NCBI GenBank assembly: GCA_965650625.1 | Contig: CBFGPE010000004.1 | Span: forward strand, 23,115-87,114 | Origin: an uncultured Azospirillum sp. | Lineage (GTDB): Bacteria > Pseudomonadota > Alphaproteobacteria > Azospirillales > Azospirillaceae | DNA length: 64,000 nucleotides | Reading direction: 5' to 3' | The notes under the pieces: model-generated | The model's database searches: none | The model's input: only the letters and a program-made list of their open reading frames with translations | Told to the model about the DNA's origin: nothing | In this document: piece by piece, positions 9,203 to 64,000 of the stretch | Position numbering within the stretch: position 1 is the stretch's first letter | Layout of the letters: every line of letters begins with the position of its first letter | Program-made: the position numbers and the translations under genes

Positions 9203-11734
9203 ATGAAAGAGAGCAGCATGTTTATCCATTTCGACCTGCCCCGTGCCGCCGGGGATTCGCTGATGGACTGTGTCGAGCGCGTCTATGGTGCGTCGCGGGT
9301 GCTGCATCTTGGACACGGGCTTCGTTTCGATATGTCGTACGAGTCCCTGCTCAGCAAAACACCTGACGAACTTGATCTGATAAAGAACCACTACGGATGT
9401 GCGGTGACGAAGCATGCCTTCTCTCTGCACAAGATACTCGGGGCTCCGTACGTTGGTTTCATTCGAAATCCCTTTGACTGGTATGTTTCTTCATATTATT
9501 GGGCACGAAAGAACAGTCTGGGGAACCCGTCTGAATTTTACGGGTATATGATCGATAAACATGATATGTCATTGGAGTATTTTGTTCATTGGCTTCACGA
9601 CATAGGTCACGACAATAATCAGGCCAAGAATATTTTATACCTTTCAAAAGATCACGACAGCGTCCTGCCTCCGGATCCGGCGGACATCACCCTCGATGAA
9701 GCGAGTTTCGCCCAGACCATCGAACTGACTGAGACCGCGTTCGCGGTTCTTGCGCCGACCGATCTGTTCGGTCCGGCGCTCTATGTCATGGGCATGCTGT
9801 TCGACTGGCCGGACCTGCCGCTGTGGCGGCTGCGCTCTTCGTCCAACTGGCGCGCCTCGGCGTCGATCCCCGACACGCTCGAGGACTTCGTGCGCGAGCG
9901 CAGCCCCCATGACTGGAACCTGTTCGCCGCCGTCCGCAAAGGGTTCGAACAGCGTTATGCCGATGTTCTGACCGCCCGCGCCGCCGAGATCGCGGACTAC
10001 GACGCCTGCTCGCGGAACCCCGCCTGGCAGGACGCGATGCCGTTTCATGTCCGCGACGTTCAGGATCATCTCCAGCAGGGCATCCGCCTTCAGGCACCGC
10101 CGCCCCGCGACCCGGCCGCCGTCCCCGGCGCCCTGCGGGGGAACTGCATGTCGGGGCTCAAGCTGCATCTTCACGGCGTGGTCCATGGGCATTTCCTGCT
10201 GTCGCCCCGCCGGGACAGCCCGCCCTTCCTGGCCGTGCCGATGGTCAGCCTGATCCACCAGACCGCCGATCCGGACCGGCTCTGGCCATTCTACGGCCCG
10301 GGCGTTCTGTTCGACCGGTCGCTGGAAGGGCTCCGGCAACGGATCGAGGCGGGAGAGGTCCCGAGCCTGGTGGAAAGTCAGGGGGATCTCCAGATCTGGT
10401 TCTACCGAGGCGCGTACCGGTTCCTGGAGTGGGCGGCCGGCGCCGACATCGACGCGGTGTATGGCGATCCCGAGCGGACGCTGGGCGGTTCCCTCCAGGC
10501 CACGGACTGGCCGACGGCCCGTCTGTTCTTCACGCTGTTCACCGATCCGTTCCAGCGGCAGCGGATCGACGGGTTCGGCATCGTCGAAGGGGTGGAGGCT
10601 GAGCCCTGGAGGGCCGAACCGACGGCCGGCGGACCGGCGGTCACCGCCCCGTCCCTGCTGCGGTTGCTCGAAGCGCTGCAGGGCAGCGGGCGCCTTTCCC
10701 TGCGGTCGCCACCGCCGTTCCTGATCGACAGCCTGACCGACTACAATCTGGTCAAGTACCAGGGCCGGAATTACGGCGCGCGCCAGGGGGCCGGGGATCT
10801 GGAAGCCCTGCTGGCGGAGCCGGGGGAAAACCTCGTCGAGGCTGCGGCGCTGACGGATGTGCGGCGGGCGATCATCGACCGCTGGCTCTCTCACCGGTCG
10901 CCGGATCCCCACCTGATCGAAACCCTGGGCGTGACCAACATCGTCCTGTTCCGGGACCGTTTCGTCGCGTTGCCGCAAGCCCTCGGGGCCGTCGATTTGT
11001 CCGATCCCGCGACGTTCCACCTGCCCGGCGTGATCGTCAGCCGCAGCCGGACTCGCCTGCGGCATCTGGTCGCAACGGAAGCCGCCGGCCAGGACGTGAA
11101 CACGCAGGCGGGCACCGCACCGACCTCGGACGACCGTCCGGCGCCCCTGCTGCCGGACGCGTCCGGAAAGGGGCGGCTGTTCTGGCTGACCGGTTTGTCC
11201 GGGGCTGGCAAGACCACGGTCGCCCTGCGTGTGTGCGCGCGGCTGCGGGCAGCCGGGCTGCCGGCGGTGCTGCTCGACGGCGACCGCCTGCGGGCCGCCA
11301 TCGCTCCCGATGCCGGTCACGCCCCCGACCAGCGCCGCCAGCTGGCCTTTTCCTACGCCCGTCTGTGCCGGGAACTGGCGGAGCAGGGGCTGGTCGTCGT
11401 CATCGCCACCATTTCGATGTTCCATGCGGTCCGCCACTGGAATCGCGAAAATGTGGACGGCTATCGCGAAATATACTTGCGCGTTCCGCTTGAGCACCGC
11501 GCCGATCGTGACCCGAAGGGCTTGTACCGTAACGCCACTGTGGATATGGTCGGAATGGATACCTCCATTGAGGAGCCGGATCAGCCAGATCTCGTAATTG
11601 ACAATTACGGCACGACGACTCCGGACGGCGCGGCCGACCTGATCTGGAACCGATTGATTGCGTCCGATGCGGCTCTGATCGGCTTATCGGCTGCAGCCCC
11701 CGAAGACGGGGCTTTGAAGAAACCCACACATTAA
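9203..11734 (+). CDS. Fusion: sulfotransferase-like N-terminal domain, repeat region, and C-terminal CysC/Cj1415-like kinase
   Basis: N-terminus FIHFDLPRAAGDS...FIRNPFDWYVSSYY resembles Sulfotransfer_2 motifs. C-terminus has WLTGLSGAGKTT, LLDGD, TISMF, RDPKGLY and EEPDQPDLVIDN. Confidence 0.8.
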   Translation: MKESSMFIHFDLPRAAGDSLMDCVERVYGASRVLHLGHGLRFDMSYESLLSKTPDELDLIKNHYGCAVTKHAFSLHKILGAPYVGFIRNPFDWYVSSYYWARKNSLGNPSEFYGYMIDKHDMSLEYFVHWLHDIGHDNNQAKNILYLSKDHDSVLPPDPADITLDEASFAQTIELTETAFAVLAPTDLFGPALYVMGMLFDWPDLPLWRLRSSSNWRASASIPDTLEDFVRERSPHDWNLFAAVRKGFEQRYADVLTARAAEIADYDACSRNPAWQDAMPFHVRDVQDHLQQGIRLQAPPPRDPAAVPGALRGNCMSGLKLHLHGVVHGHFLLSPRRDSPPFLAVPMVSLIHQTADPDRLWPFYGPGVLFDRSLEGLRQRIEAGEVPSLVESQGDLQIWFYRGAYRFLEWAAGADIDAVYGDPERTLGGSLQATDWPTARLFFTLFTDPFQRQRIDGFGIVEGVEAEPWRAEPTAGGPAVTAPSLLRLLEALQGSGRLSLRSPPPFLIDSLTDYNLVKYQGRNYGARQGAGDLEALLAEPGENLVEAAALTDVRRAIIDRWLSHRSPDPHLIETLGVTNIVLFRDRFVALPQALGAVDLSDPATFHLPGVIVSRSRTRLRHLVATEAAGQDVNTQAGTAPTSDDRPAPLLPDASGKGRLFWLTGLSGAGKTTVALRVCARLRAAGLPAVLLDGDRLRAAIAPDAGHAPDQRRQLAFSYARLCRELAEQGLVVVIATISMFHAVRHWNRENVDGYREIYLRVPLEHRADRDPKGLYRNATVDMVGMDTSIEEPDQPDLVIDNYGTTTPDGAADLIWNRLIASDAALIGLSAAAPEDGALKKPTH

Positions 11735-55192: not shown

Positions 55193-55810
55193 ATGAACGC
55201 CTTCCAAGCGCCGGCACCCTACCGCATCGTCCGCAACTTCCTGGGCGACGAGCTGATCGAGCGGCTGCTGGCCCATGCCCTGGCCAGCCGGGAGGACTTC
55301 GCTCCGACGCGGGTTGGCGGCAAAACGGGGCGCGAGGATCGGGAAATCCGCATCTCCCTGGTGCTGCGCAAGCTCGGACCGCTGAAAGACGAGCTCAAGG
55401 CCCGGTTTCGGGCAATGGCCGACTGGTCGGTCGGGGAATTCCGCCTGTCGCCCTTCGATCTCGACTCGATGGAGATCGAGCTGGTCGCCCACGGCGACGG
55501 CGCCTTCTACGCGCGGCACATCGACACCGCGACGGGGGATCCCGAGCTCGCCAGCGACCGCGTCCTCACCGGCGTTCTCTACTTCCACGCGCTGCCCAGG
55601 CGTTTCAGCGGCGGCGAACTGCGCATGCATTCGATCCTGCCACCGGAGCACGGCGGCCGGCATGAGGACATCGAGATGGAGCGGGACATGCTGCTGCTAT
55701 TCCCGTCCTGGGCGCCGCACGAGGTCCGGCCGGTCTCCTGCCCCTCCGGCGACTTCGCCGACCACCGCTTCGCCATCAATTGCTGGTACCGGAAGCGGCG
55801 CGCCGCATGA
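55193..55810 (+). CDS. 2OG-Fe(II) oxygenase (prolyl-hydroxylase-like)
   Basis: YARHID, VLYF, GGELR, FPSWAPHEV, and RFAINCW. Confidence 0.85.
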   Translation: MNAFQAPAPYRIVRNFLGDELIERLLAHALASREDFAPTRVGGKTGREDREIRISLVLRKLGPLKDELKARFRAMADWSVGEFRLSPFDLDSMEIELVAHGDGAFYARHIDTATGDPELASDRVLTGVLYFHALPRRFSGGELRMHSILPPEHGGRHEDIEMERDMLLLFPSWAPHEVRPVSCPSGDFADHRFAINCWYRKRRAA

Positions 55811-55990: not shown

Positions 55991-57928
55991 ATGCGGCTGA
56001 TCTGCGGCTTCCTGCGTCTCGACGGGTGTCCGGCCGAGGGCGAACGGCTCGACGCCATGGCGGCCGCCATGGTGGGGCCAGGCCTGTCACCGTCCGTCGC
56101 CCGCCGTATCGACGGCCCGGTGGCCCTGGCGATGCTCGACTTCGCCAGTCCCCGTTCCTGGCCGGCGGCCGGGGGGATGCCGGCTGGAGAGAGCGGCCTG
56201 CTGCTGGCGGCCGATATCCGCCTCGATGAACCGGACCGGCTGGCCGGGGCGTTGGGCGGAGCGCTGGGCAACGCAGACGGCTCCGCCGGCACGGGACGGG
56301 ACGACGGACTGCTGCTATCCGCGCTGGAGCGCTGGGGACAGGGGGGCGTGGGCCGCGTGCTCGGCGACTTCGCCTTTGCGGCGTGGGATCCGCGCTCGCG
56401 CAGCCTGCTGTGCGCCCGCGACGCCATGGGGGTGCGCCCCTTCTTCTTCCTGCACCGTCCGGGTGAGGCCTTCGCCTTCGCCTCGCTGCCGCGCGGGCTG
56501 CATGCCGGCGGCTTCGCTGCGCGGGAACTCGACGAGGAGTACCTGCTCGGCACGCTGTTGCTTACGCCCCTCGGGCCGGAGCGCTCGTTCTTCCGTGGGA
56601 TGGAGCGTCTGGCGCCGGGCGGCCTGCTGCGGGTTTCGGCCGGAGGGCTCGAACGGAGTCTCCACTGGCAACCCGACGAGGCCACGGCGGGGCGCCGAGC
56701 CTGCCGGCCGGAAGAGGCGGCCGAAGAGATGGCGGCGCTGCTGGCGGAAGCGGTGCGCTGCCGCCTGCCCGCGGCGGGGCCGGTGGCGACGCATCTCAGC
56801 GGCGGCCTCGACTCCTCGACCGTTACCGTCCTGGCGGCGCGGATGCTGCGCGGCCAGGGGCGTCCGCTGTGCGCCTATTCGTTCCTGCCGCGACGAGGCG
56901 ACGGCTATTCGGACAACGACGAGCGGCCGTATATCGATGCCGTCCTCCGCCAGGAGCCGGACATCGACTGGACTCCCGTCCACATCACCGACCCGGCGGC
57001 CTTCGTCCTGCCGCGCCTGGATCCGGATCAGCCCTACTCCTGCGACCCCGCCACGCCCGAGGTACAGGTCTGTGCCGACGCCGCGGCGCGCGGCGCCGGC
57101 ACCTTGCTAACAGGCTGGGGCGGCGACGAGGGGGCGACCTTCCATGGCGGCGGAGCCTTGGCCGAAGCGTTCCTGGCCGGACGCTGGCGGACCCTGGCCC
57201 GGGAGGTTCGGGCTCTGGAGAAACTGGGGCGGTCGCCGATGTCGGTGGTGCGCGGCGACATCCTGCCCTACCTGATTCCCGATCGGGCGCAACGGCTGAT
57301 CAGGCGCCTGCTGGGCCGACCGCCGCAACGGACCGGCTACGAGAGGGTCGCCGCGCTGCTCCGCCCCGGCGCGGTTGCCGGGGTTTCATCGTCGAGCTTC
57401 GTCTTCAGGCCCGACGCCGTGGCGAACCGCTTGGCGGGGCTGACGGAGCCGGGCGTCGCGGCCAACGTCGAGAAGCTGGCGACGATGGGGGCCCGGTATG
57501 GTCTCGCCGTCGCCTTCCCGATGCTGGACCGGCGGCTGGTCGCGTTCGTGCTGTCGTTGCCCAGCGCCCTGTTCCTGCGCGACGGGTGGAGGAGGCGCCT
57601 CTTCCGCGACGCCATGGCCGGCGTGCTGCCGTCCGAAATCCGCTGGCGCCCGGACAAGCTCGCCGCGATTCCGGAACAGCCGGACCTCGTGCTCGGGCAG
57701 CGCGACGCCCTGTTGGCGCAGTTGCCCCCGTTGCGCCGGCATCCGCGCATTGCCGCCCTCTTCGACCTCGACGTCATCGAGGAGCGGCTGCGTGCCCTGC
57801 CGTCCGCCGACGAGACGCCGAAGACCTTGTCACTCCGGGAGGCGCAAGAGGTCAGGCGGAGCATCTCGGTACTTTGGCGGGTTCTCTGCTTCGCCATCTA
57901 CGTGCAGCATCATCACGGTATGGACTGA
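55991..57928 (+). CDS. Asparagine-synthase-like lasso peptide cyclase (C protein)
   Basis: GDFAFAAWD, ARDAMGVRP, HLSGGLDS, TGWGGDE, and PMLDRRLV..RR.FRDAM. Lacks the Cys at residue 2 needed for glutaminase activity. Adjacent to B1/B2. Confidence 0.8.
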   Translation: MRLICGFLRLDGCPAEGERLDAMAAAMVGPGLSPSVARRIDGPVALAMLDFASPRSWPAAGGMPAGESGLLLAADIRLDEPDRLAGALGGALGNADGSAGTGRDDGLLLSALERWGQGGVGRVLGDFAFAAWDPRSRSLLCARDAMGVRPFFFLHRPGEAFAFASLPRGLHAGGFAARELDEEYLLGTLLLTPLGPERSFFRGMERLAPGGLLRVSAGGLERSLHWQPDEATAGRRACRPEEAAEEMAALLAEAVRCRLPAAGPVATHLSGGLDSSTVTVLAARMLRGQGRPLCAYSFLPRRGDGYSDNDERPYIDAVLRQEPDIDWTPVHITDPAAFVLPRLDPDQPYSCDPATPEVQVCADAAARGAGTLLTGWGGDEGATFHGGGALAEAFLAGRWRTLAREVRALEKLGRSPMSVVRGDILPYLIPDRAQRLIRRLLGRPPQRTGYERVAALLRPGAVAGVSSSSFVFRPDAVANRLAGLTEPGVAANVEKLATMGARYGLAVAFPMLDRRLVAFVLSLPSALFLRDGWRRRLFRDAMAGVLPSEIRWRPDKLAAIPEQPDLVLGQRDALLAQLPPLRRHPRIAALFDLDVIEERLRALPSADETPKTLSLREAQEVRRSISVLWRVLCFAIYVQHHHGMD

Positions 57929-58462
57929 CTGACCGGCCGCCGCTGTATTGGCTGCTGTACTGGGTGCCGTCTCGTGGGTGAAGCGGGCGATTTCGGTGAA
58001 GCCGCGGCTGACCGGGACGCCGACCACGCCCATGTCGCCGACGGTCAGCCACGCGTGCGCTTCCATCCTCTGGCCGGCCCTCTGGCCGTCCCGGTGGCCG
58101 GTGCCATCCGTGGCCAGGCGCATGCCGAAATGGAGCGTCGAGGCGATGCAGCGCCGATGGAGCATCAGCTTGGCAACGATTGCCTGTGGCAGACAGTGCG
58201 CCTGGCACGGCAGATGGCGGGCGGCACGACCGACCGCCATTCCGACCCTGCGGATGGCGGTCTGCCGTCGTTCGTCAAGGGGAAAGGCGGCGTCGATGCC
58301 GCTGGATGGAGGGCCGCCGGACAGGACGCCGAACCGGGCGGCGATCCATCGGAACGGCAGCAGGCCCAGCACCGCGAGTGCCAGCACCAGCCACGCCGCC
58401 GCCTCCAGCGTCAGCCACCGGTCCCCTGCGGGAAGGTTCAGGAATTTACGCAGCCGTTCCAT
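57830..58462 (-). CDS. Lasso peptide B2 leader peptidase (transglutaminase-like)
   Basis: CLPQA (Cys), LHFG, AHAW (His), and VVG. Confidence 0.88.
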   Translation of the reverse strand: MERLRKFLNLPAGDRWLTLEAAAWLVLALAVLGLLPFRWIAARFGVLSGGPPSSGIDAAFPLDERRQTAIRRVGMAVGRAARHLPCQAHCLPQAIVAKLMLHRRCIASTLHFGMRLATDGTGHRDGQRAGQRMEAHAWLTVGDMGVVGVPVSRGFTEIARFTHETAPSTAANTAAAGQSVHTVMMLHVDGEAENPPKYRDAPPDLLRLPE

Positions 58463-58754
58463 CGCCCGGCTTCAGCAGCCCGCGCTCATGCAAGGTCCCC
58501 AGGAAGCGCTCAGCCTCGTCCCGTGCCGTGGCGGGGGCGACCTCGTACTCGGCGACCAGTTGCGCGACCAGCCGCTCCAGCGTCGTGGGGGTTTCGAGCA
58601 ATTCCCAGATCCGGGTGCCGACGGGGTTCAGGTTGAAGTAGGTGCCGCTCTCGACGCTCATCATCAACAGCTCGTCGTTGACGGCGGCGGTCAGCAGACC
58701 GTCGGCACGCTGGAAGGCTTCATTCCGGGACGGTGCCGCGTCATTCATGGACAT
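58446..58754 (-). CDS. PqqD-family RiPP recognition element (lasso B1)
   Basis: ELLMMS..SGTYFNLNPVGTRIWELL...EYEV....ARDE...FL..L...GLL. Confidence 0.9.
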   Translation of the reverse strand: MSMNDAAPSRNEAFQRADGLLTAAVNDELLMMSVESGTYFNLNPVGTRIWELLETPTTLERLVAQLVAEYEVAPATARDEAERFLGTLHERGLLKPGDGTAA

Positions 58755-58833
58755 TCCCTTTCCAAGCAATTCCCTGCTGTCTCGGGCAACTATTCAGATG
58801 ACAATGTGCGCCCACCTGTCAAACGATAGCGGA

Positions 58834-59685
58834 TCACAAATAGCCGTATCGCTTCATCATCGGGCGATGAGCGGCTGCGATGGCTTCCTGTTGGACCGGC
58901 GTGAGCGTCTCGGCCCACGCCCCCGCGCGGCCGGAGCGGAAGAACGGCGCGATCGATTTCAGTGACCGCTCGGAAAACCCTTTCTGCTGCTCCTGCCGCT
59001 GCAGCGTGGTGAAGTCCGCAAAGCGAGCGGCGCGTTCCACCTGTGCCCGTGACGCTGCCAGCCCCAAAAAAGCGATGGCCGCGCCGAAGCTGCCGACAGG
59101 ATCTGCCCGCAGATCCTCGTACCGTAGTACGTGTACCGGCACATCGTACTGCTCGGTCCAACTGGCCACATGACCACTCCAGTCCAGCGTCACCTGGGGA
59201 AGCTGGCTTTCCAGATGGTTGAGGTTCGCGGCCAAAGTGTGGTGGTTGGAGTTCAGCCATCCGATGGCGTGGTCGATGCCGACATGCGCGTGGAAGGAAA
59301 AAGACACGGCTACATCGCGCGGGTCACGTACTATGTATAGCGCCGCGCGCGCCACGCCACGGCCCAAAACCGGCTCACCGTCGGGGTTTACCCGGTACGC
59401 ATCGTGTACCTTGAGGTACACCGGCTCCGTTGTCTCCGCCACGATGCCCTCGATGATCCGAGGGCGCAGCCGGTCCGCCTCGTCCTTCGTCAGCAGATCC
59501 GTGTCGATCAAAGTGATGTCGTCGGCGTCGGCCCGATTGACCGGATAACGGTTGCAGAGGTTGATCCGGTTGATATCGACCGGCTCCTCCCCCATGGATA
59601 GCAGGTTGGCGAAAAGCAAACGCAGCCACGTGTTGCCCGATTTCGGATAGGACGCCAGCCAAACGATCCTGCCCTCCGGCGCCAT
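58834..59685 (-). CDS. Sulfotransferase (Sulfotransfer_1)
   Basis: WLASYPKSGNTWLR, KVHD, YIVRDPRDVAVS, RYEDL, and FFRSGRAG.W. Confidence 0.92.
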   Translation of the reverse strand: MAPEGRIVWLASYPKSGNTWLRLLFANLLSMGEEPVDINRINLCNRYPVNRADADDITLIDTDLLTKDEADRLRPRIIEGIVAETTEPVYLKVHDAYRVNPDGEPVLGRGVARAALYIVRDPRDVAVSFSFHAHVGIDHAIGWLNSNHHTLAANLNHLESQLPQVTLDWSGHVASWTEQYDVPVHVLRYEDLRADPVGSFGAAIAFLGLAASRAQVERAARFADFTTLQRQEQQKGFSERSLKSIAPFFRSGRAGAWAETLTPVQQEAIAAAHRPMMKRYGYL

Positions 59686-60596
59686 CAGGCACTCTCCCGG
59701 AGGTGCGCAAGAACCATTTGGACGGTTTCATCGAGACGGCCGAAATCAATGGCCTGGGAAAGTCGGAAGACACGGACATGGCCGAGCAGGGCGGCGATCT
59801 GGCCGAAAAGCTGGGTGTCACGTCCCATATGGGACGCCAAGGACGAGCGATACACCTCCCGGCGCAGCAGGGGTGCTGCCTCCACCAGCTTGAGGGGCAG
59901 GAAGGCCGGGACCTGCGGTGGCCGCACTTGCCGGAGCAGAATGACGGTCTTCAGCGGAAAGCTGGGCTGCGCACCCGCGCCACAGGGATCGACATGGTAT
60001 TTCCGGATGCCTTTCCTGACCGCCTCTCCCTGACGGTCGGCAAGCGACAGTCGTTCCACGGCTTCGGCCCACAATCGGTGCCAACGCCCGTCGGACAGCA
60101 CGGAGGGGCGGCCGTCCGGACCGAACCGGATGGCCGAGACGTCATCGCTGATGAACCCGCCTCCCGCCCGGCACAACGCTGCGGCAAAGGTTGATTTCCC
60201 CGCTCCGGTCGGGCCGCACAGCGCCACGCCGCAACCATCGAGGGAGACGGCCGCCGCATGCAGTACCAGGCTCCCGCGCTGATGCAGCGCGGCGCCGAGC
60301 CCAGTACCCAGAAGGAAAGGTGCGGCATCCGCCTCACGCCCCGGCGCTTCCAGAGCCGCAATGATCTCGCGCCCGGCGATGACCAGGCAACGGACCACGC
60401 CGGGTACATGAAAGAGAAACGAGGAACCAGCAACCTGCCAGTTCGGTCCGACGTAGCTTGCACCTTCCATCGTCGTCGGTACGGCACCGCGCCGGATCAC
60501 CACATCCGGTTCAGACCGGGACCGTTCGATCTCCTGATACCCTGCTAAAGCGAACTCCGAAGCGACCGACTGCCCACAGATCAGGTATTGGAACAA
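59685..60596 (-). CDS. HPr-kinase-like lasso peptide kinase (PadeK-type candidate)
   Basis: LVLHAAAV, GPTGAGKST, and ISDD. TTG start; TGATG overlap with the sulfotransferase. Confidence 0.82.
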   Translation of the reverse strand: MFQYLICGQSVASEFALAGYQEIERSRSEPDVVIRRGAVPTTMEGASYVGPNWQVAGSSFLFHVPGVVRCLVIAGREIIAALEAPGREADAAPFLLGTGLGAALHQRGSLVLHAAAVSLDGCGVALCGPTGAGKSTFAAALCRAGGGFISDDVSAIRFGPDGRPSVLSDGRWHRLWAEAVERLSLADRQGEAVRKGIRKYHVDPCGAGAQPSFPLKTVILLRQVRPPQVPAFLPLKLVEAAPLLRREVYRSSLASHMGRDTQLFGQIAALLGHVRVFRLSQAIDFGRLDETVQMVLAHLRESA

Positions 60597-60705
60597 TCAC
60601 CACTCCCAACGCCAGAACGGCATCCTGCCATAGTGTACATCCATCCTTCGCTTCTGGAGGGAGGAAGCTCCGATCACCGATCTGGGAGAGCTGATAAACC
60701 CTAGT

Positions 60706-60873
60706 TCATGACGCCGTAGTATAGGCGGTGGGATTGCTCCCTTCCGGAGTGCCGGCACCTTTCTGCAAGGTCAAGGTCTGAATGCTCTGGCTCTGGATTT
60801 CCGGCGTGACCCACACTTTCTTGGGCTGAGCGGGTTCAGCGTTCGCCGGATGGGGGAGGTCATGCGCAGGCAT
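60706..60873 (-). CDS. Candidate lasso peptide precursor (55 aa), not in the ORF track
   Basis: Manual translation: MPAHDLPHPANAEPAQPKKVWVTPEIQSQSIQTLTL-QKGAGTPEGSNPTAYTTAS*. It has a WxxPxI leader motif, Thr at -2, Glu at core position 8 and a C-terminal Ser, and lies directly upstream of the kinase. Confidence 0.75.
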   Translation of the reverse strand: MPAHDLPHPANAEPAQPKKVWVTPEIQSQSIQTLTLQKGAGTPEGSNPTAYTTAS

Positions 60874-60985
60874 GATGAAGCTTTCGGTCTGGTCGGCAGA
60901 GAGCGGGCCGCAGGTAGTCTGCGACCCCTATGAAACCTAGCAGGATACCGTCAGAGTGACAAGCATCGGTGGCAGCAGCCACGAC

Positions 60986-61537
60986 TCATGCGGGATATTG
61001 TGGTCCCGCCGTCAATTTGGCCTGCTTGGGATCCGGGTGCCACACCATGCTCCAGGCTGGTCCCTGCATTCCAACTTCGACGAAGCCCAGACGGCGGTAG
61101 AGGATCTGCGCCGGGTTCGTCATATCCACGGCGAGGCTGACCGTCTTGCCCTCGTTGGCGGCTTCGGCCTGCACCGCCCGGATCAGCGCCGTTCCCAGGC
61201 CGCGGCCCCGCCATTCCGGAACCAGCGACACGTCGACGACGCGCACGTCGCCGGCAGTACGGAGCAGGTAGAGCCGCCCGATGGGGACGTCGCCCTGCAC
61301 CAGGATGCCGAAATCGGCATCGGCGTAGGCGGCGGCGTAGTGGTGCGCCTGGAAGGCGAACTGCTGGGCCAGGAACGCCCGCTTGGCTTCCTCCGGCCAT
61401 CCGGTCGGATCGAGTTCGCCGATGCGGATCGAGACGAACAGCCGCTCCAGGAACGGCCGGTCGTCCGCGGTCTCGCCACGCAGGGCGAAGCCCTGCCCTG
61501 CGCCATGCAGGGCAAGGCTTCGGTATGCGGTCTGCAT
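60986..61537 (-). CDS. GNAT N-acetyltransferase
   Basis: QFAFQAHHY...PIGRLY...VVDVSLVPEWRGRGLGT...NPAQILYRRLGF. Confidence 0.88.
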   Translation of the reverse strand: MQTAYRSLALHGAGQGFALRGETADDRPFLERLFVSIRIGELDPTGWPEEAKRAFLAQQFAFQAHHYAAAYADADFGILVQGDVPIGRLYLLRTAGDVRVVDVSLVPEWRGRGLGTALIRAVQAEAANEGKTVSLAVDMTNPAQILYRRLGFVEVGMQGPAWSMVWHPDPKQAKLTAGPQYPA

Positions 61538-61550
61538 CGCCGGCACGCGA

Positions 61551-62147
61551 TCAATTCCGCACCGGGAAGACCCCGTCATTGTTGATGCAGAACAGCATCG
61601 TCAGATACGGCTGCCGGTTCTCATGCGCATCGACGCCGCCCGCGGTGTTGCCGCCGCCGACGGTGATGGAAGCCCCATGCATCATCGTGTCGGGCGACTG
61701 TCCGGTGTTCGCGATGTACGCCGCCACGTTGTTGTAGGTGGTGGCGGAAGTCGGCTGGACGACACGCGCCAGCCAGGACTGGTTGGCCACGGGCGTGGTC
61801 TGCGTGTTGGTCTGAATGCCGGTCGCTACCGGATTCTCCACCGTCATCGTGTGGTTGTGCGGCGGTAGCTGCTGGCCGCTGAGAACCACCGTCTTGCTGC
61901 CGACCGTCGTGGCCCCCCAGTGCCGCGGCGACAGGCCCGGCCCCTGGCCCTGGCACATGACGGTGAAGCCCTGCAGGTTGGGCAGCTTGAAGGTCTGGTT
62001 GGGGGTGCCGCCCCAGGTGTTGCCGATGATGGCGTAGAGCGCCGCATTCAGGGGCGCGGAGATTTCCTGCCCGTTGCAGATGTACCAGCCCTGCGGAACG
62101 TACCCGAAGGCGAATGCGCGAATTTCGCCGATGTAAGCGTCAGCCAT
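61551..62147 (-). CDS. Phage tail collar domain protein 3 (MdpB-like)
   Basis: YIGEIRAFAF...PQGWYICNGQ...LYAIIGNTWGG...FKLPNLQG...HENRQPYL..FCI...GVFP.RN. Confidence 0.88.
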   Translation of the reverse strand: MADAYIGEIRAFAFGYVPQGWYICNGQEISAPLNAALYAIIGNTWGGTPNQTFKLPNLQGFTVMCQGQGPGLSPRHWGATTVGSKTVVLSGQQLPPHNHTMTVENPVATGIQTNTQTTPVANQSWLARVVQPTSATTYNNVAAYIANTGQSPDTMMHGASITVGGGNTAGGVDAHENRQPYLTMLFCINNDGVFPVRN

Positions 62148-62162
62148 GGTTTTGCCTCCCTC

Positions 62163-62705
62163 TTACGCCCGGGTGGGGAAAGTGCCGTTCAGGGCGATGA
62201 TATAGGTCAGGACCGCGGTGGGCATGACGTTGGCATGCCCGACGCCCGCCCCCTCGGTCGAGATGGTGGAGGCCACCGGGTTGACCGCCGATCCGCCGGC
62301 GCTGCCCAGGCCGCTCTTCAGGTACATGGCCGTGGGGCTGGTGGTGTTGGCGAACATCACCGTGCTGCCGGGGTTCGGCGTGGTGGCCGGGAGGCCGGCG
62401 GTCCGCAGGAGGTGGTTGTGCGCCCCGGTGTGCGCGGCCTGCAGCGACACGGTCTCGCTGCCGCCGGACTGCCCCATGACGCGGTTGGTTAGGCCGGTTC
62501 CTTGGCCCTGCCCGATCGGGATGCGGCCGCGCAGGTCGGGGATGCCGAAGGTCTGGACGCCGTCGCCGCCGTAGGTGGTGCCGATCAGCGCGTACAGCGC
62601 CTGATAGGTGTTGATGGCAAGCAGCGAGCCGTCGCAGATGTGCCAGTCGGCTGGTGGGTAGCTGCCCGCGAACAGCCGGATCTCGCCAACGAAATAATCG
62701 GTCAT
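62163..62705 (-). CDS. Phage tail collar domain protein 2 (MdpB-like)
   Basis: FVGEIRLFAG...WHICDG.LL....ALYALIGTTYGGDG..TF.IPDLRGR...H.NVMP...YIIAL.G.FP. Confidence 0.9.
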   Translation of the reverse strand: MTDYFVGEIRLFAGSYPPADWHICDGSLLAINTYQALYALIGTTYGGDGVQTFGIPDLRGRIPIGQGQGTGLTNRVMGQSGGSETVSLQAAHTGAHNHLLRTAGLPATTPNPGSTVMFANTTSPTAMYLKSGLGSAGGSAVNPVASTISTEGAGVGHANVMPTAVLTYIIALNGTFPTRA

Positions 62706-62738
62706 GGATGCTCCCTTCTCCGAATCAATGGGCCGTCG

Positions 62739-63281
62739 TCAGTTCCGCGCCGGATAAAGGCCGACGATCGCGATGCAGAAATTCAGCACTAGGAAGGGTT
62801 GCATGTTGTTGTGCCCCGCGGCGGCAGGCGTGGTGGAGATCGTCGCCGGGTTGAGCGTGATGGGGGCCGTTCCGGGCGCGCCGTAGATGCTCGGCGCCGT
62901 CGTCACCTTCGCATTGGTGCCTGTCGAGGCGAAGAAGTTGCCGGACGGATTCGGTGCGACACCGGCGGCGGCGAGCCCGTTGACCGTGTGCTGGTGCGGC
63001 GGGATCTGGGTGCCGGTCAGCGCCACCGTCTCCACCCCCAGCGCCTTGCCGCGCATGTAGTCGCCCGAGGGATCGTTCAGGTTCAGGTGAGCCATCGCGC
63101 GCCCGCGCAGGTCGGGCAGATTGAACGTCGTCGTCCCGTTGCCGCCGTACGTCGTGCCGAGCAGGGAGAACAGCGCCTGGTTCCCCTGGATTTGCATGGT
63201 GGTGCCGTCGCACAGATGCCATCCGTCCGGCGCCCAATTCATCGGGAACACCCGGATTTCGCCCAAGAACCAATCACTCAT
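62739..63281 (-). CDS. Phage tail collar domain protein 1 (MdpB-like)
   Basis: FLGEIRVF...WHLCDG...NQALFSLLGTTYGGNGTTTFNLPDLRGR...HNNMQPFLVLNFCIAIVGLYP.RN. Confidence 0.9.
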   Translation of the reverse strand: MSDWFLGEIRVFPMNWAPDGWHLCDGTTMQIQGNQALFSLLGTTYGGNGTTTFNLPDLRGRAMAHLNLNDPSGDYMRGKALGVETVALTGTQIPPHQHTVNGLAAAGVAPNPSGNFFASTGTNAKVTTAPSIYGAPGTAPITLNPATISTTPAAAGHNNMQPFLVLNFCIAIVGLYPARN

Positions 63282-63669
63282 AGCGTTCCTCCTCGCAGCC
63301 TTGGAGCGTACCAGAAGCATGCAAATCAATGGCGACCGGCAACTTCGGATACATACTCCTGCCTATATCACGGGTTGATTTGGCCTTATCGCATCAAATT
63401 GTGACAAAGGCGCCCTCCACATGCAACGGGATGTCTGTTTGATTTCAATGCAGTAGCAATACGCGATATGGCATACGTAAGCGTGTTGCGGACCTTGAGA
63501 TAATCTACTGGAAGTACGTTCGCGGTCCCGACCTTGGTTCTGGTTCCATGCGACTCGGATGTATCACCGGAATGTTTTTCGCCTTTGCCGGTCTTCGTTT
63601 CCAAGCCCGTGACGGTTCGGGTATGGTCGCGCCCGCGAACCAGCCTGCCATCCCATGACGGGAACCGCC

Positions 63670-64000
63670 ATGCGAGCGATCCTTTTCGGCCTGCTCCGGC
63701 ACCTTCGCCCGTCCGGGGATGCGGTATCCCCGGCGGGGGAATTCGCCGCCTTCCTGCGCGACGTCGCCGCCTTCGCCGGCTGGCGGCTGGCCGGGATGGC
63801 GGTGCTGGCGGTGCTGGCCGCCGCGGCGGAGGGTATCGGCCTGCTGCTGCTGGTGCCGCTGCTCTCGATGGTCGGTGTCGGGGTCGGCGGCGTGGGAGGT
63901 AACCGGCCGGGGGAGAGCGGCCGGTCCTGGCTGGCCTTCCTTGGACTGGGGACCGGACTGGAAGGCGCGCTGGTCCTCTATGTGGTCCTGGTGGCGGCGG
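63670..64000 (+). CDS. ABC transporter permease/ATP-binding protein, N-terminal part (lasso D-type candidate), truncated by the window edge
   Basis: Manual translation MRAILFGLLRH...LAVLAAAAEGIGLLLLVPLLSMVG... is hydrophobic and open to the window end. Confidence 0.65.
   Translation, partial: MRAILFGLLRHLRPSGDAVSPAGEFAAFLRDVAAFAGWRLAGMAVLAVLAAAAEGIGLLLLVPLLSMVGVGVGGVGGNRPGESGRSWLAFLGLGTGLEGALVLYVVLVAA

Follow-up and report, generated by a model that had tools for sequence, protein, structure and literature searches.

The closest described relatives of the locus studied here are the paeninodin-type lasso clusters of Paenibacillus dendritiformis (kinase PadeK) and Thermobacillus composti (kinase ThcoK). 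These combine split B1 and B2 genes, an asparagine-synthetase-like cyclase and an ABC exporter with an HPr-kinase homologue carrying a His-Lys-Asp-Asp motif, which is essential in PadeK (PMC9266682), and with a precursor ending in serine. Phosphorylation of this Ser on the linear peptide has been demonstrated for PadeK, ThcoK and SyanK (PMC8498205; PMC9266682); homologous kinases modify linear precursors at their C-terminal Ser, in some cases more than once, and B1 speeds up the reaction (PMC8498205; PMC9266682; PMC10368454). SyanK, from Sphingobium yanoikuyae ATCC 51230, is a polyphosphorylating kinase, and its cluster is proteobacterial, of the kinase type, with a precursor that has a C-terminal Ser (Zhu et al., 2016, FEBS Lett., as relayed in PMC8498205 and PMC9266682).

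Sulfotransferases have also been noted in such clusters. Letzel et al. (2014) reported the co-occurrence of HPr kinase and sulfotransferase genes in lasso clusters and left the function open (PMC4289311), and some Firmicute kinase lasso clusters carry a putative sulfotransferase (Zhu et al., 2016, as relayed in PMC8498205 and PMC9266682). The combination, on which the first-pass annotation of our locus centred, had therefore been reported in 2014 (PMC4289311) and, according to PMC8498205, by Zhu et al. in 2016. The clusters of Letzel et al. are found in anaerobes and were described without precursor rules, coupling statistics or a product, whereas the family considered here comes from aerobic Proteobacteria, with a conserved set of precursors of its own. 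The same annotation knew of no characterised sulfated lasso peptide, and we likewise found none in the literature searched, which included reviews of 2021, 2022 and 2026. Clusters with this enzyme pair have thus been noticed before, and none of their products is characterised.

The window, a stretch of 64,000 nucleotides from an uncultured Azospirillum sp., shares all the paeninodin-type features listed above and, like the SyanK cluster, is proteobacterial. A minus-strand run of precursor, kinase, sulfotransferase (ST), B1 and B2 genes converges on a plus-strand cyclase gene (Table 1). All genes named in the first-pass annotation were recovered at or near their original positions from open reading frames and Pfam/NCBIfam matches, and the assignment to a lasso cluster is borne out by matches to NF033535, NF033536 and NF033537 and by the recurrent gene order. 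We interpret the locus, with a probability of about 0.6, as an intact class II lasso cluster with tailoring enzymes, of the kinase (paeninodin/SyanK) type, belonging to a conserved and largely proteobacterial sub-family that couples a PAPS-dependent sulfotransferase translationally to the kinase.

Table 1. Features of the lasso cluster and its flanks, in window coordinates.
Feature	Position	Strand	Basis and remarks
unk214, compact protein with predicted sulfotransferase fold	54103-53459	-	No Pfam match; follows Oxy263
Oxy263, 2OG oxygenase	54911-54120	-	PF13640
Oxy205, 2OG-Fe(II) oxygenase, 205 aa	55193..55810	+	PF13640, E 4e-16; immediately upstream of cyclase
Lasso cyclase C, 645 aa, Asn-synthetase homologue	55991..57928	+	NF033535
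B2, 210 aa, transglutaminase-like leader peptidase	57830..58462	-	NF033537, PF13471
B1, ~100 aa, PqqD-like RiPP recognition element	58446..58769	-	PF05402, E 1.7e-21; NF033536, E 4e-20
Sulfotransferase ST, 283 aa	58834..59685	-	PF00685, E 1.4e-22; canonical PAPS-dependent Sulfotransfer_1
Kinase K, 303 aa	59685..60596	-	HPr-kinase-like / ScmC-family P-loop kinase
Precursor A, 55 aa	60706..60873	-	ORF; homologous small ORFs in other loci
GNAT acetyltransferase	60986..61579	-	PF13508, PF00583; directly upstream of precursor
Three tandem phage-tail-collar-domain genes	61551..63329	-	PF07484, E 1e-20 to 6e-28; between GNAT and exporter
Tail-collar genes individually, 198, 180 and ~180-196 aa	62147-61551, 62705-62163, 63329-62739	-	
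ABC exporter D, 5' end	63655..64000	+	ABC_membrane, ABC_tran

Compared with the paeninodin type, the window has ST placed between the kinase and B1 and coupled to the former, a convergent cyclase and, in addition, a prolyl-hydroxylase-like oxygenase, a GNAT and a tail-collar triad. The Firmicute clusters, as far as the sources cited above describe them, have the sulfotransferase at the cluster start and commonly a nucleotidyltransferase, a gene absent from the cluster studied here. Three Sphingomonadaceae loci that are candidates for the SyanK type (L037, L038 and L041) differ further: their kinases are of 31-34% identity, they lack a sulfotransferase, and D-B2-C is divergent from K-B1.

The 28 loci with both kinase and ST genes span Alpha-, Beta- and Gammaproteobacteria as well as Acidobacteriota and Bacteroidota, and K-ST pairs are also found in Bryobacteraceae and Bacteroidales. 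About 27 independent loci in three proteobacterial classes have A-K-ST-B1-(B2) in this order, converging on C-(X)-oxygenase, and 24 of these retain the small precursor ORF; the arrangement is therefore far beyond chance. The conserved unit extends to the left of position 55991, at least as far as Oxy205. Its genes are all full length compared with their homologues, no frameshifts or internal stops were seen, and the GC content is close to that of the surroundings. A search for promoter and terminator signals at the cluster detected none.

The lasso maturation proteins are readily recognized. B1, which probably starts at ATG 58754 or 58748, overlaps B2 by 17 nt. B2 scores 72 bits against NF033537 (lasso_biosyn_B2; cut-off 33), and in an alignment with nine homologues the Cys of CLPQA and the His of AHAW are conserved. 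The conserved domain stops near ARFTHE, and only through the non-conserved extension of the last ~35 residues does B2 run antisense into the cyclase gene, over 99 nt. The cyclase has an SGGLDS PP-loop and no Cys at position 2. We considered whether it might be a housekeeping asparagine synthetase and rejected this: its best NCBIfam match is the lasso isopeptide cyclase family NF033535 (E 1.4e-81, against 1.3e-41 for asn_synth_AEB), and three Asn_synthase genes with far stronger matches lie elsewhere in the genome.

The precursor consists of the leader MPAHDLPHPANAEPAQPKKVWVTPEIQSQSIQTLTL, with a W-x-x-P-E-I motif and Thr(-2), and the putative core QKGAGTPEGSNPTAYTTAS. The leader motif conforms to [Y/W]xxPx[L/V/I], the known RRE recognition motif (PMC13381572; PMC10368454). 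In other loci 23 homologous small ORFs, each directly upstream of a kinase gene, show the same features. The leader motif, the Thr and a Glu at ring position 8-9 are common to all 24 precursors. In each of them core position 2 or 3 is Lys and the C-terminal residue is Ser, the sole hydroxyl residue strictly conserved across the cores; Tyr occurs in only two. On the basis of these conserved features the core of the window is predicted to comprise 19 residues with a Gln1-Glu8 ring, Lys2 and C-terminal Ser19. With cleavage placed by Thr(-2), the ring has 8 or 9 residues in 23 of the 24 precursors; if Lys is instead taken as residue 1, with a ring of 7-8, all 24 fit. Gln at position 1 is unusual, with one other example in the family (L016); Lys, Phe and Leu are also seen there.

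Kinase K gives weak profile matches to Hpr_kinase_C, HprK_rel_A/B and ScmC, and its homologues carry a precomputed PF27840 (ScmC) annotation. None of 44 homologues departs from G128-x2-G-x-G-K134-S, D151 or D152, and H113 is almost as constant, a pattern that matches the His-Lys-Asp-Asp motif of PadeK. By homology to the characterised kinases, the expected phosphorylation site is the C-terminal Ser of the precursor while it is still linear.

The kinase stop and the ST start share one base (TGATG within gcCTGATGgcg). The two genes are adjacent in all 28 loci that have both, and a stop/start overlap is retained in 27, in keeping with the translational coupling originally noted; both genes are integral to the lasso operon. 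In 30 ST homologues the 5'-phosphosulfate loop (K15-S-G-N-T-W), K92/H94 with the catalytic His, the 3'-phosphate site (R120-D-P-R-D-V-x-x-S128) and R250-x-G252 are invariant; judged by these residues the enzyme looks active, and PAPS supply is plausible given three APS-kinase domains in the genome. A sequence comparison with solved structures (best E 1.6e-14) places ST closest to two sulfotransferases of glycopeptide antibiotics, Teg12 and Teg14, and StaL ranks lower. These PAPS-dependent enzymes act on peptide natural products and share with ST the PKxGxTW motif, the catalytic His and the RxPRDxxxS motif. Their targets are phenolic hydroxyls on aglycones of non-ribosomal glycopeptides and not ribosomal peptides, whereas in our precursor family Tyr is not conserved. 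RaxX/RaxST of Xanthomonas, the implicit model for a signalling role, offers PAPS-dependent sulfation of a ribosomal peptide in a plant-associated proteobacterium. RaxST, however, resembles tyrosylprotein sulfotransferases and modifies Tyr in a linear peptide, while ST is of the Sulfotransfer_1/StaL type and its presumed substrate is a lasso peptide. For the peptide of the window Tyr would be the obvious guess as sulfation site, but with Tyr so rare in the cores, tyrosine sulfation is not the conserved chemistry of the family.

Oxy205 has as its closest solved relatives human PHD2 and 4iw3, which is listed as an uncharacterised protein and which we take to be a Pseudomonas prolyl hydroxylase. 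Of 27 kinase-sulfotransferase loci, about 20 have a gene of this type beside the cyclase, and the protein is probably a peptide hydroxylase. About 11 loci have a GNAT gene beside the lasso genes, and roughly half have none; the enzyme may acetylate the invariant core Lys, as GNATs of actinomycete lasso clusters do with conserved core Lys residues (bioRxiv 10.1101/2024.12.31.630886). The tail-collar triad adjoins kinase-type lasso genes in 11 loci, from Azospirillum, Pseudomonas, Burkholderiales, Methylobacter, Sphingomonas and two metagenome contigs; L043 and L044 have it in the same setting. The exporter gene is on the plus strand as annotated, but it starts at ATG 63655, since 63670 is the second Met, and it is not directly divergent from the precursor because the GNAT and tail-collar genes intervene. 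It continues ~1.6 kb beyond the window end and encodes a 645-aa TMD-NBD half-transporter (L008, 770-2707). Exporter homologues (35-73% identity) stand beside the lasso genes of L011, L015, L031 and L044, as they do in L037, L038 and L041, the Sphingomonas-type clusters without a sulfotransferase. To the left, Oxy263 and unk214 may form a hydroxylase/sulfotransferase pair belonging to the cluster. The unk214 AlphaFold model (pLDDT 91.5) has sulfotransferase-family proteins as its top 31 Foldseek PDB matches, StaL, Teg14, Teg12, SULTs and TPST among them; the pair adjoins divergent kinase-type lasso clusters in L043 and L044 and is also found without any lasso genes in L045-L048.

A pathway can be proposed from these assignments. 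B1 would bind the precursor through the W-x-x-P-E-I motif, as known RRE biology suggests, and the kinase would phosphorylate the Ser19 hydroxyl of the linear peptide, possibly more than once. ST would transfer sulfate from PAPS to the peptide, the candidate acceptors being a tail Ser, Thr or Tyr hydroxyl, the phospho-Ser terminus or the invariant Lys; because only the C-terminal Ser is strictly conserved among the hydroxyl residues, the cores do not pinpoint a separate sulfation site. Oxy205 probably hydroxylates a core residue and the GNAT may acetylate Lys2. B2 would cleave after Thr(-2)-Leu(-1), the cyclase would close the ring between the amine of Gln1 and the side chain of Glu8, with the tail trapped in it, and the half-transporter would export the product.

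The conserved C-terminal Ser and the gene overlap, which suggests stoichiometric co-production, would also fit a coupled chemistry in which kinase and ST act in turn on this one residue. Sulfate might be added to the phospho-Ser, yielding a phosphosulfate-type mixed anhydride, or a sulfate cap might limit polyphosphorylation. Pseudomycoidin provides a precedent for building on the phosphate, its nucleotidyltransferase adding a hexose onto that of phospho-Ser (PMC8498205; PMC9266682). Against this, phosphate monoesters are not known as acceptors of any sulfotransferase, the nearest relatives of solved structure (Teg12, Teg14, StaL and SULT1) sulfate phenolic or alcoholic hydroxyls, and simple operon economy accounts equally for the overlap; we regard such chemistry as unlikely. 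N-sulfation of the invariant Lys to a sulfamate strikes us as very unlikely. An amine sulfotransferase (7v1o) is among the weaker PDB sequence matches of ST, and acetylation cannot explain Lys conservation everywhere since the residue is invariant even in loci without a GNAT, but no precedent for it is known in peptides, the Lys may serve cyclase/B2 recognition or target binding, and where a GNAT is present precedent favours acetylation.

It is improbable that the substrate of ST is not the peptide but, for instance, a small molecule or a glycan of the neighbouring glycosylation island, or that ST partners the kinase without being a catalyst. A GT41 gene follows the exporter, and the wider ST family is far larger than that of the kinase (>5,800 against 172 matches in a word-indexed search). 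Glycan genes, however, are not common to kinase-ST loci, the position of ST between kinase and B1 and its overlap with the kinase hold across phyla, its PAPS-binding and catalytic residues are all invariant, and the three closest ST homologues whose context was examined all sit inside lasso clusters. It is also hard to see the cluster as a silent or decaying, horizontally acquired island with no mature product in this strain. Of 69 genomes in the genus, only 2 have an orthologous kinase (>50% identity) and likewise the orthologous cluster; both the core with Gln1 and the antisense overlap are oddities; and related kinase-type clusters have proved silent or hard to express, one having resisted expression in five hosts (PMC10368454). 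Yet the genes and catalytic motifs are intact and the GC content is close to that of the surroundings.

Our preferred reading therefore remains an intact kinase-sulfotransferase lasso cluster. The intact kinase and ST motifs agree with the doubly modified peptide originally envisaged, but two modifications are probably an undercount, the family having a prolyl-hydroxylase-like oxygenase and often a GNAT. A role as a plant signal is speculative, its one pointer being that the genus is Azospirillum. The cluster is one member of a large and widespread family and not a one-off, and its product should bear phosphate and probably also sulfate.

The locus is a proteobacterial lasso cluster of the kinase type; its sulfotransferase is tightly coupled to the kinase, and it holds additional candidate tailoring genes. 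The lasso genes named in the first-pass annotation were all recovered by ORF listing and family scans, as was the arrangement it described, in which a minus-strand run of precursor, kinase, sulfotransferase, B1 (PqqD/RRE) and B2 (leader peptidase) converges on a plus-strand cyclase. The ABC exporter is also present and complete, its ORF having been finished from contig sequence beyond the window end, but it does not adjoin the precursor as that layout suggested: four genes, a GNAT and three phage-tail-collar-domain genes, lie between the two. The conserved unit moreover reaches to the left of position 55991, where the annotation had placed its boundary.

Genes of the lasso locus and its surroundings
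Feature	Coordinates	Strand	Evidence or remark
Precursor ORF, 55 aa	60873-60706	-	ORF listing
HPr-kinase-like P-loop protein	60596-59685	-	Weak Hpr_kinase_C, HprK_rel_A/B and ScmC matches
Sulfotransfer_1 protein (PF00685)	59685-58834	-	E 1.4e-22
PqqD-family B1	58769-58446	-	PF05402; lasso PqqD chaperone model NF033536, E 4e-20
Transglutaminase-like B2	58462-57830	-	Lasso B2 model NF033537, score above cut-off
Asn-synthetase homologue, cyclase C	55991-57928	+	Best NCBIfam match NF033535, E 1.4e-81
Oxy205, 205-aa 2OG oxygenase	55193-55810	+	Just upstream of cyclase
GNAT	60986-61579		Adjoins precursor
Three phage-tail-collar-domain genes	61551-63329	-	Tandem, between GNAT and exporter
ABC exporter, 645 aa (complete)	Start 63655, leaves window		ABC_membrane + ABC_tran half-transporter
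Oxy263, second 2OG oxygenase	54911-54120	-	Left of Oxy205
unk214, 214 aa	54103-53459	-	After Oxy263; no Pfam match

Packing of the genes is tight. The kinase stop and the sulfotransferase start share one base (CTGATGG), and the B1 and B2 genes overlap by 17 nt. A 99-nt antisense overlap of B2 with the cyclase (57830-57928) arises because the last 35 or so residues of this B2 form a non-conserved C-terminal extension, which is missing from nine homologues. Between 55700 and 64000 a promoter scan gave no promoter-like sites; five terminator-like sites were found there, against about 4.3 expected from shuffles, and the 110-nt spacer between precursor and kinase holds no attenuator-like structure (RNA fold, z = 0.76). 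On the contig continuation past the window end (L008, 2568-6457), two genes come after the exporter, one of TPR-GT41 type (O-GlcNAc-transferase-like) and one for a methyltransferase of 520 aa that contains a MethyTransf_Reg domain. Both are syntenic in Azospirillum cavernae at 72-74% identity.

The precursor motif, B1, B2 and the cyclase together identify a lasso cluster, for which a threaded topology is predicted. In the precursor the RRE-recognition motif (WVTPEI), Thr at position -2 and an acidic residue within core positions 7-9 (Glu8) are all found. We aligned it with its homologues as 24 small ORFs from 24 loci, each directly upstream of a kinase gene. The leaders have in common K-K-x-W-x-x-P-E-I-R-D-Q-S-I-x-S-L-T, followed by one variable residue and the core; their W-x-x-P-x-I element fits [Y/W]xxPx[L/V/I/F/A], the motif to which lasso RREs bind (PMC13381572; PMC10368454). 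Every core has Lys at position 2 or 3, with a Glu six or seven residues beyond it, and a short tail rich in Ser, Thr, Pro and Gly, which ends in Ser in all 24.

The register of the core is ambiguous. With the invariant Thr set as -2, rings of eight or nine residues result in 23 of the 24 precursors and position 1 is mostly small (Ala, Gly or Ser in 19). The spacing from Trp to Thr is one residue short of the canonical Tyr(-17)/Thr(-2). Placing Trp at -17 makes Lys residue 1 and gives rings of seven or eight in all 24 precursors, at the cost of leaving position -2 without a conserved residue. We favour the Thr(-2) register, by which the window core is predicted to be QKGAGTPEGSNPTAYTTAS, closed between Gln1 and Glu8. 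A Gln at position 1 is unusual but recurs in Niveispirillum (locus L016).

In nine of the 24 leaders (loci L020, L022, L024, L026-L028, L030, L034 and L036, in ORFs just upstream of position 10001) the K-x-W-x-x-P-x-[ILM] motif is doubled in tandem, e.g. KKTWNRPEMKAWNKPEIRDQSI; the window precursor carries it once. With the repeat, RRE-dependent enzymes may have two sites at which to dock. One Pseudomonadota MAG (L013, around 9500-9980) has two tandem precursor genes whose cores differ.

The remaining core enzymes appear competent. The kinase scores 24.8 bits with the Pfam Hpr_kinase_C model, under the 33.3 cut-off. Among 44 kinase homologues its P-loop Lys134, Asp151 and Asp152 never vary and His113 hardly does; the four match the His-Lys-Asp-Asp residues that are essential in PadeK (PMC9266682). 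With these residues and its Ser-ended core, the locus has both sequence features of a kinase-tailored lasso system. A natural kinase-PqqD/RRE fusion of 406 aa (kinase homologue P0390) is consistent with leader-guided phosphorylation; in the six long kinase homologues checked, no kinase-sulfotransferase fusion was seen. B2 keeps the conserved Cys of CLPQA and His of AHAW.

The possibility that the cyclase is a functional asparagine synthetase was considered. It retains an SGGLDS PP-loop, and the asparagine synthase equivalog matches at E 1.3e-41, compared with 1.4e-81 for the lasso isopeptide cyclase, a model (NF033535) on which it scores 275 bits, short of the strict 525-bit cut-off. Its N-terminus reads MRLICGF, without Cys2, and the AsnB models score far below their cut-offs (TIGR01536, 143 bits against 267; NF006949, 59 against 499). 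Three Asn_synthase genes elsewhere in the genome are far stronger matches, and the cyclase is therefore not the housekeeping enzyme.

How widely is this arrangement distributed? A scan with a kinase profile built from 22 closer kinase sequences, against one genome per prokaryotic species, returned 30 loci, which were compared with the window proteins by tblastn. They derive from A. cavernae, Niveispirillum, Ferrovibrio, Sphingomonas, three Pseudomonas species, Methylomonas, Methylobacter, Burkholderiales MAGs, one Bryobacteraceae MAG and one Bacteroidales MAG. Wherever the kinase is at least 42% identical to that of the window, a sulfotransferase lies immediately downstream, with two exceptions: one locus is truncated at a contig end, and the other is a second, duplicated kinase in Pseudomonas asturiensis. 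Most of these loci have a convergent cyclase. The translational coupling of kinase and sulfotransferase claimed from the window sequence holds for the family, the kinase stop overlapping the sulfotransferase start (TGATG, ATGA or GTGA) in 27 of 28 loci that have the pair. Of the sulfotransferase homologues examined for genomic context, the three closest all lie in the same order: exporter, three collar genes, GNAT, small ORF, kinase, sulfotransferase, PqqD and B2, then a convergent cyclase and a 2OG oxygenase. Sphingomonadaceae loci with kinases 31-34% identical have no sulfotransferase, are laid out differently and may represent the published SyanK type.

For the kinase, an exhaustive search gave 189 representative clusters of related sequences (50% identity) with E values no higher than 1e-30, and 5,279 at 1e-10. 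Within the genus Azospirillum a kinase of more than 50% identity occurs in only two of 69 genomes, which marks the cluster as an accessory, patchily distributed island. In P. asturiensis (L029) the two kinase genes belong to a precursor-kinase-sulfotransferase run convergent on the cyclase and to a separate kinase-B1-B2 run. Pseudomonas silvicola (L019) carries two collar triads.

Among solved structures, the sulfotransferase is closest in sequence to Teg12 and Teg14, and StaL ranks lower; all three are PAPS-dependent enzymes that sulfate glycopeptide antibiotics. The motifs that define PAPS sulfotransferases align to Teg12 and are invariant in 30 homologues: the 5'-phosphosulfate loop YPKSGNTW, catalytic His94 (KVH94) and the 3'-phosphate site R120DPRDVAVS128 (RDPRDVxxS). 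A C-terminal RxG is invariant in these homologues as well. The genome encodes three APS-kinase domains, so PAPS can plausibly be made.

Kinases of homologous clusters act on the linear precursor, in which they phosphorylate the C-terminal Ser and no other residue; SyanK and ThcoK can stack further phosphates on the first, and phosphorylation can be sped up by B1 (PMC8498205; PMC9266682; PMC10368454). By analogy with these homologues, B1 would bind the leader and the kinase would phosphorylate the C-terminal Ser of the linear precursor, after which B2 would cut off the leader and the cyclase would close the ring. To this scheme we add that the sulfotransferase probably modifies the same peptide. 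A non-peptide substrate is a further candidate for this enzyme; the operon position, the coupling to the kinase conserved across phyla and the intact active site lead us to infer that it acts on the cluster's own peptide.

Which group would then be sulfated? The comparative data argue against the default guess of Tyr. Although the window tail contains Tyr15, a Tyr occurs in only two of the 24 family cores (the window and L021), so that the conserved Tyr of RaxX/RaxST-like peptides is missing and Tyr15 was rejected as a conserved family site. Ser or Thr occurs several times in every tail, and a tail hydroxyl is, on present sequence comparisons, the most likely site of O-sulfation. [quoted passage not shown] These point to two less likely and more novel alternatives, coupled chemistry on the phospho-Ser and N-sulfation of the Lys. 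For the GNAT beside the precursor there is a precedent, since GNATs of actinomycete lasso clusters acetylate a conserved core Lys (bioRxiv 10.1101/2024.12.31.630886); here, however, the Lys is invariant also in loci without a GNAT. That the coupled kinase and sulfotransferase give the peptide a modification so far unknown in peptides, either a phosphosulfate-type mixed anhydride on the C-terminal phospho-Ser or an N-sulfated invariant core Lys, seems to us improbable; were either true, the family would represent new ribosomal-peptide chemistry, beyond a combination of phosphate and O-sulfate.

The unit includes further candidate tailoring genes. About 20 of 27 loci have Oxy205 beside the cyclase. 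Among solved structures it is closest to human PHD2 and to 4iw3, a database entry listed only as an uncharacterised protein, which we take to be a Pseudomonas prolyl hydroxylase. Two clear oxygenase-less loci, L017 and L025, have cores with one Pro or none, a weak hint that Oxy205 might hydroxylate Pro. Both keep the sulfotransferase, which is therefore not dependent on the oxygenase; hydroxyproline made by the oxygenase was rejected as its obligatory target. In many family members (e.g. L009, L011 and L012) an extra gene of 273-281 aa with no Pfam match separates the cyclase from the 205-aa oxygenase; it is missing from the window, A. cavernae and one Niveispirillum copy. The three collar genes and the GNAT adjoin kinase-type lasso genes in 11 loci from alpha-, beta- and gammaproteobacteria, and two further Azospirillum genomes have them beside divergent lasso clusters. 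L045-L047 have a reduced form, one collar gene with a GNAT-like gene, and no lasso genes.

To the left of Oxy205, unk214 has no sequence match in Pfam or the PDB. An AlphaFold model from a 32-sequence alignment (pLDDT 91.5, compared with only 35 from the single sequence) is compact with a clear sulfotransferase fold, and the top 31 matches from a Foldseek search of the PDB all belong to the sulfotransferase family, led by StaL and Teg14. Resemblance to the cluster sulfotransferase is weak by sequence (BLASTP E 0.17; hhalign probability 13%), with colinear RDPRD and RYED motifs; a P-loop-like QSSGAT and RDPRDNYxS can be recognized. The model suggests that unk214 is a second, hidden sulfotransferase-fold protein and a candidate tailoring enzyme. 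It is always paired with Oxy263, and 15 of the 69 genomes of the genus carry it. The pair adjoins much more divergent kinase-type lasso clusters in L043 and L044, which come from two other Azospirillum genomes; in one of them it lies between B2 and the exporter. Since the pair also occurs alone, or with just a GNAT-like and one collar gene, in genomes free of kinase homologues (L045-L048), we count it as no more than a possible member of the lasso cluster.

Characterised kinase-type lasso clusters include those of paeninodin, ThcoA/ThcoK, SyanA/SyanK, pseudomycoidin and BsfK. In lasso clusters of anaerobes, a sulfotransferase gene next to an HPr kinase was described in 2014 (PMC4289311), and the same was reported again for Firmicute paeninodin-like clusters, as summarised in PMC8498205. 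A putative sulfotransferase gene for lasso peptides is mentioned in a 2021 review and not in reviews of 2022 or 2026. In agreement with the first-pass annotation, full-text literature searches on lasso peptides with sulfotransferase or sulfation yielded no characterised sulfated lasso peptide. Overall, what that annotation observed stands, while its interpretation, a doubly modified (phospho and sulfo) lasso peptide, is supported in part only, and the plant-signal role it suggested is a speculative one; for the window locus the product is a prediction from genes.

As one of many equivalent members, the window cluster is of moderate individual importance. The role of sulfotransferases in kinase-type lasso clusters has been a standing question in the literature since 2014-2016. 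Defining the family by its fixed gene order, the overlap in 27 of 28 loci and an alignment of 24 precursors with invariant Ser, Lys and Glu makes the question of sulfation directly testable, and adds a prolyl-hydroxylase-like oxygenase, a GNAT and a sulfotransferase-fold protein as candidate tailoring enzymes. A sulfated product would be new chemistry for the lasso class.
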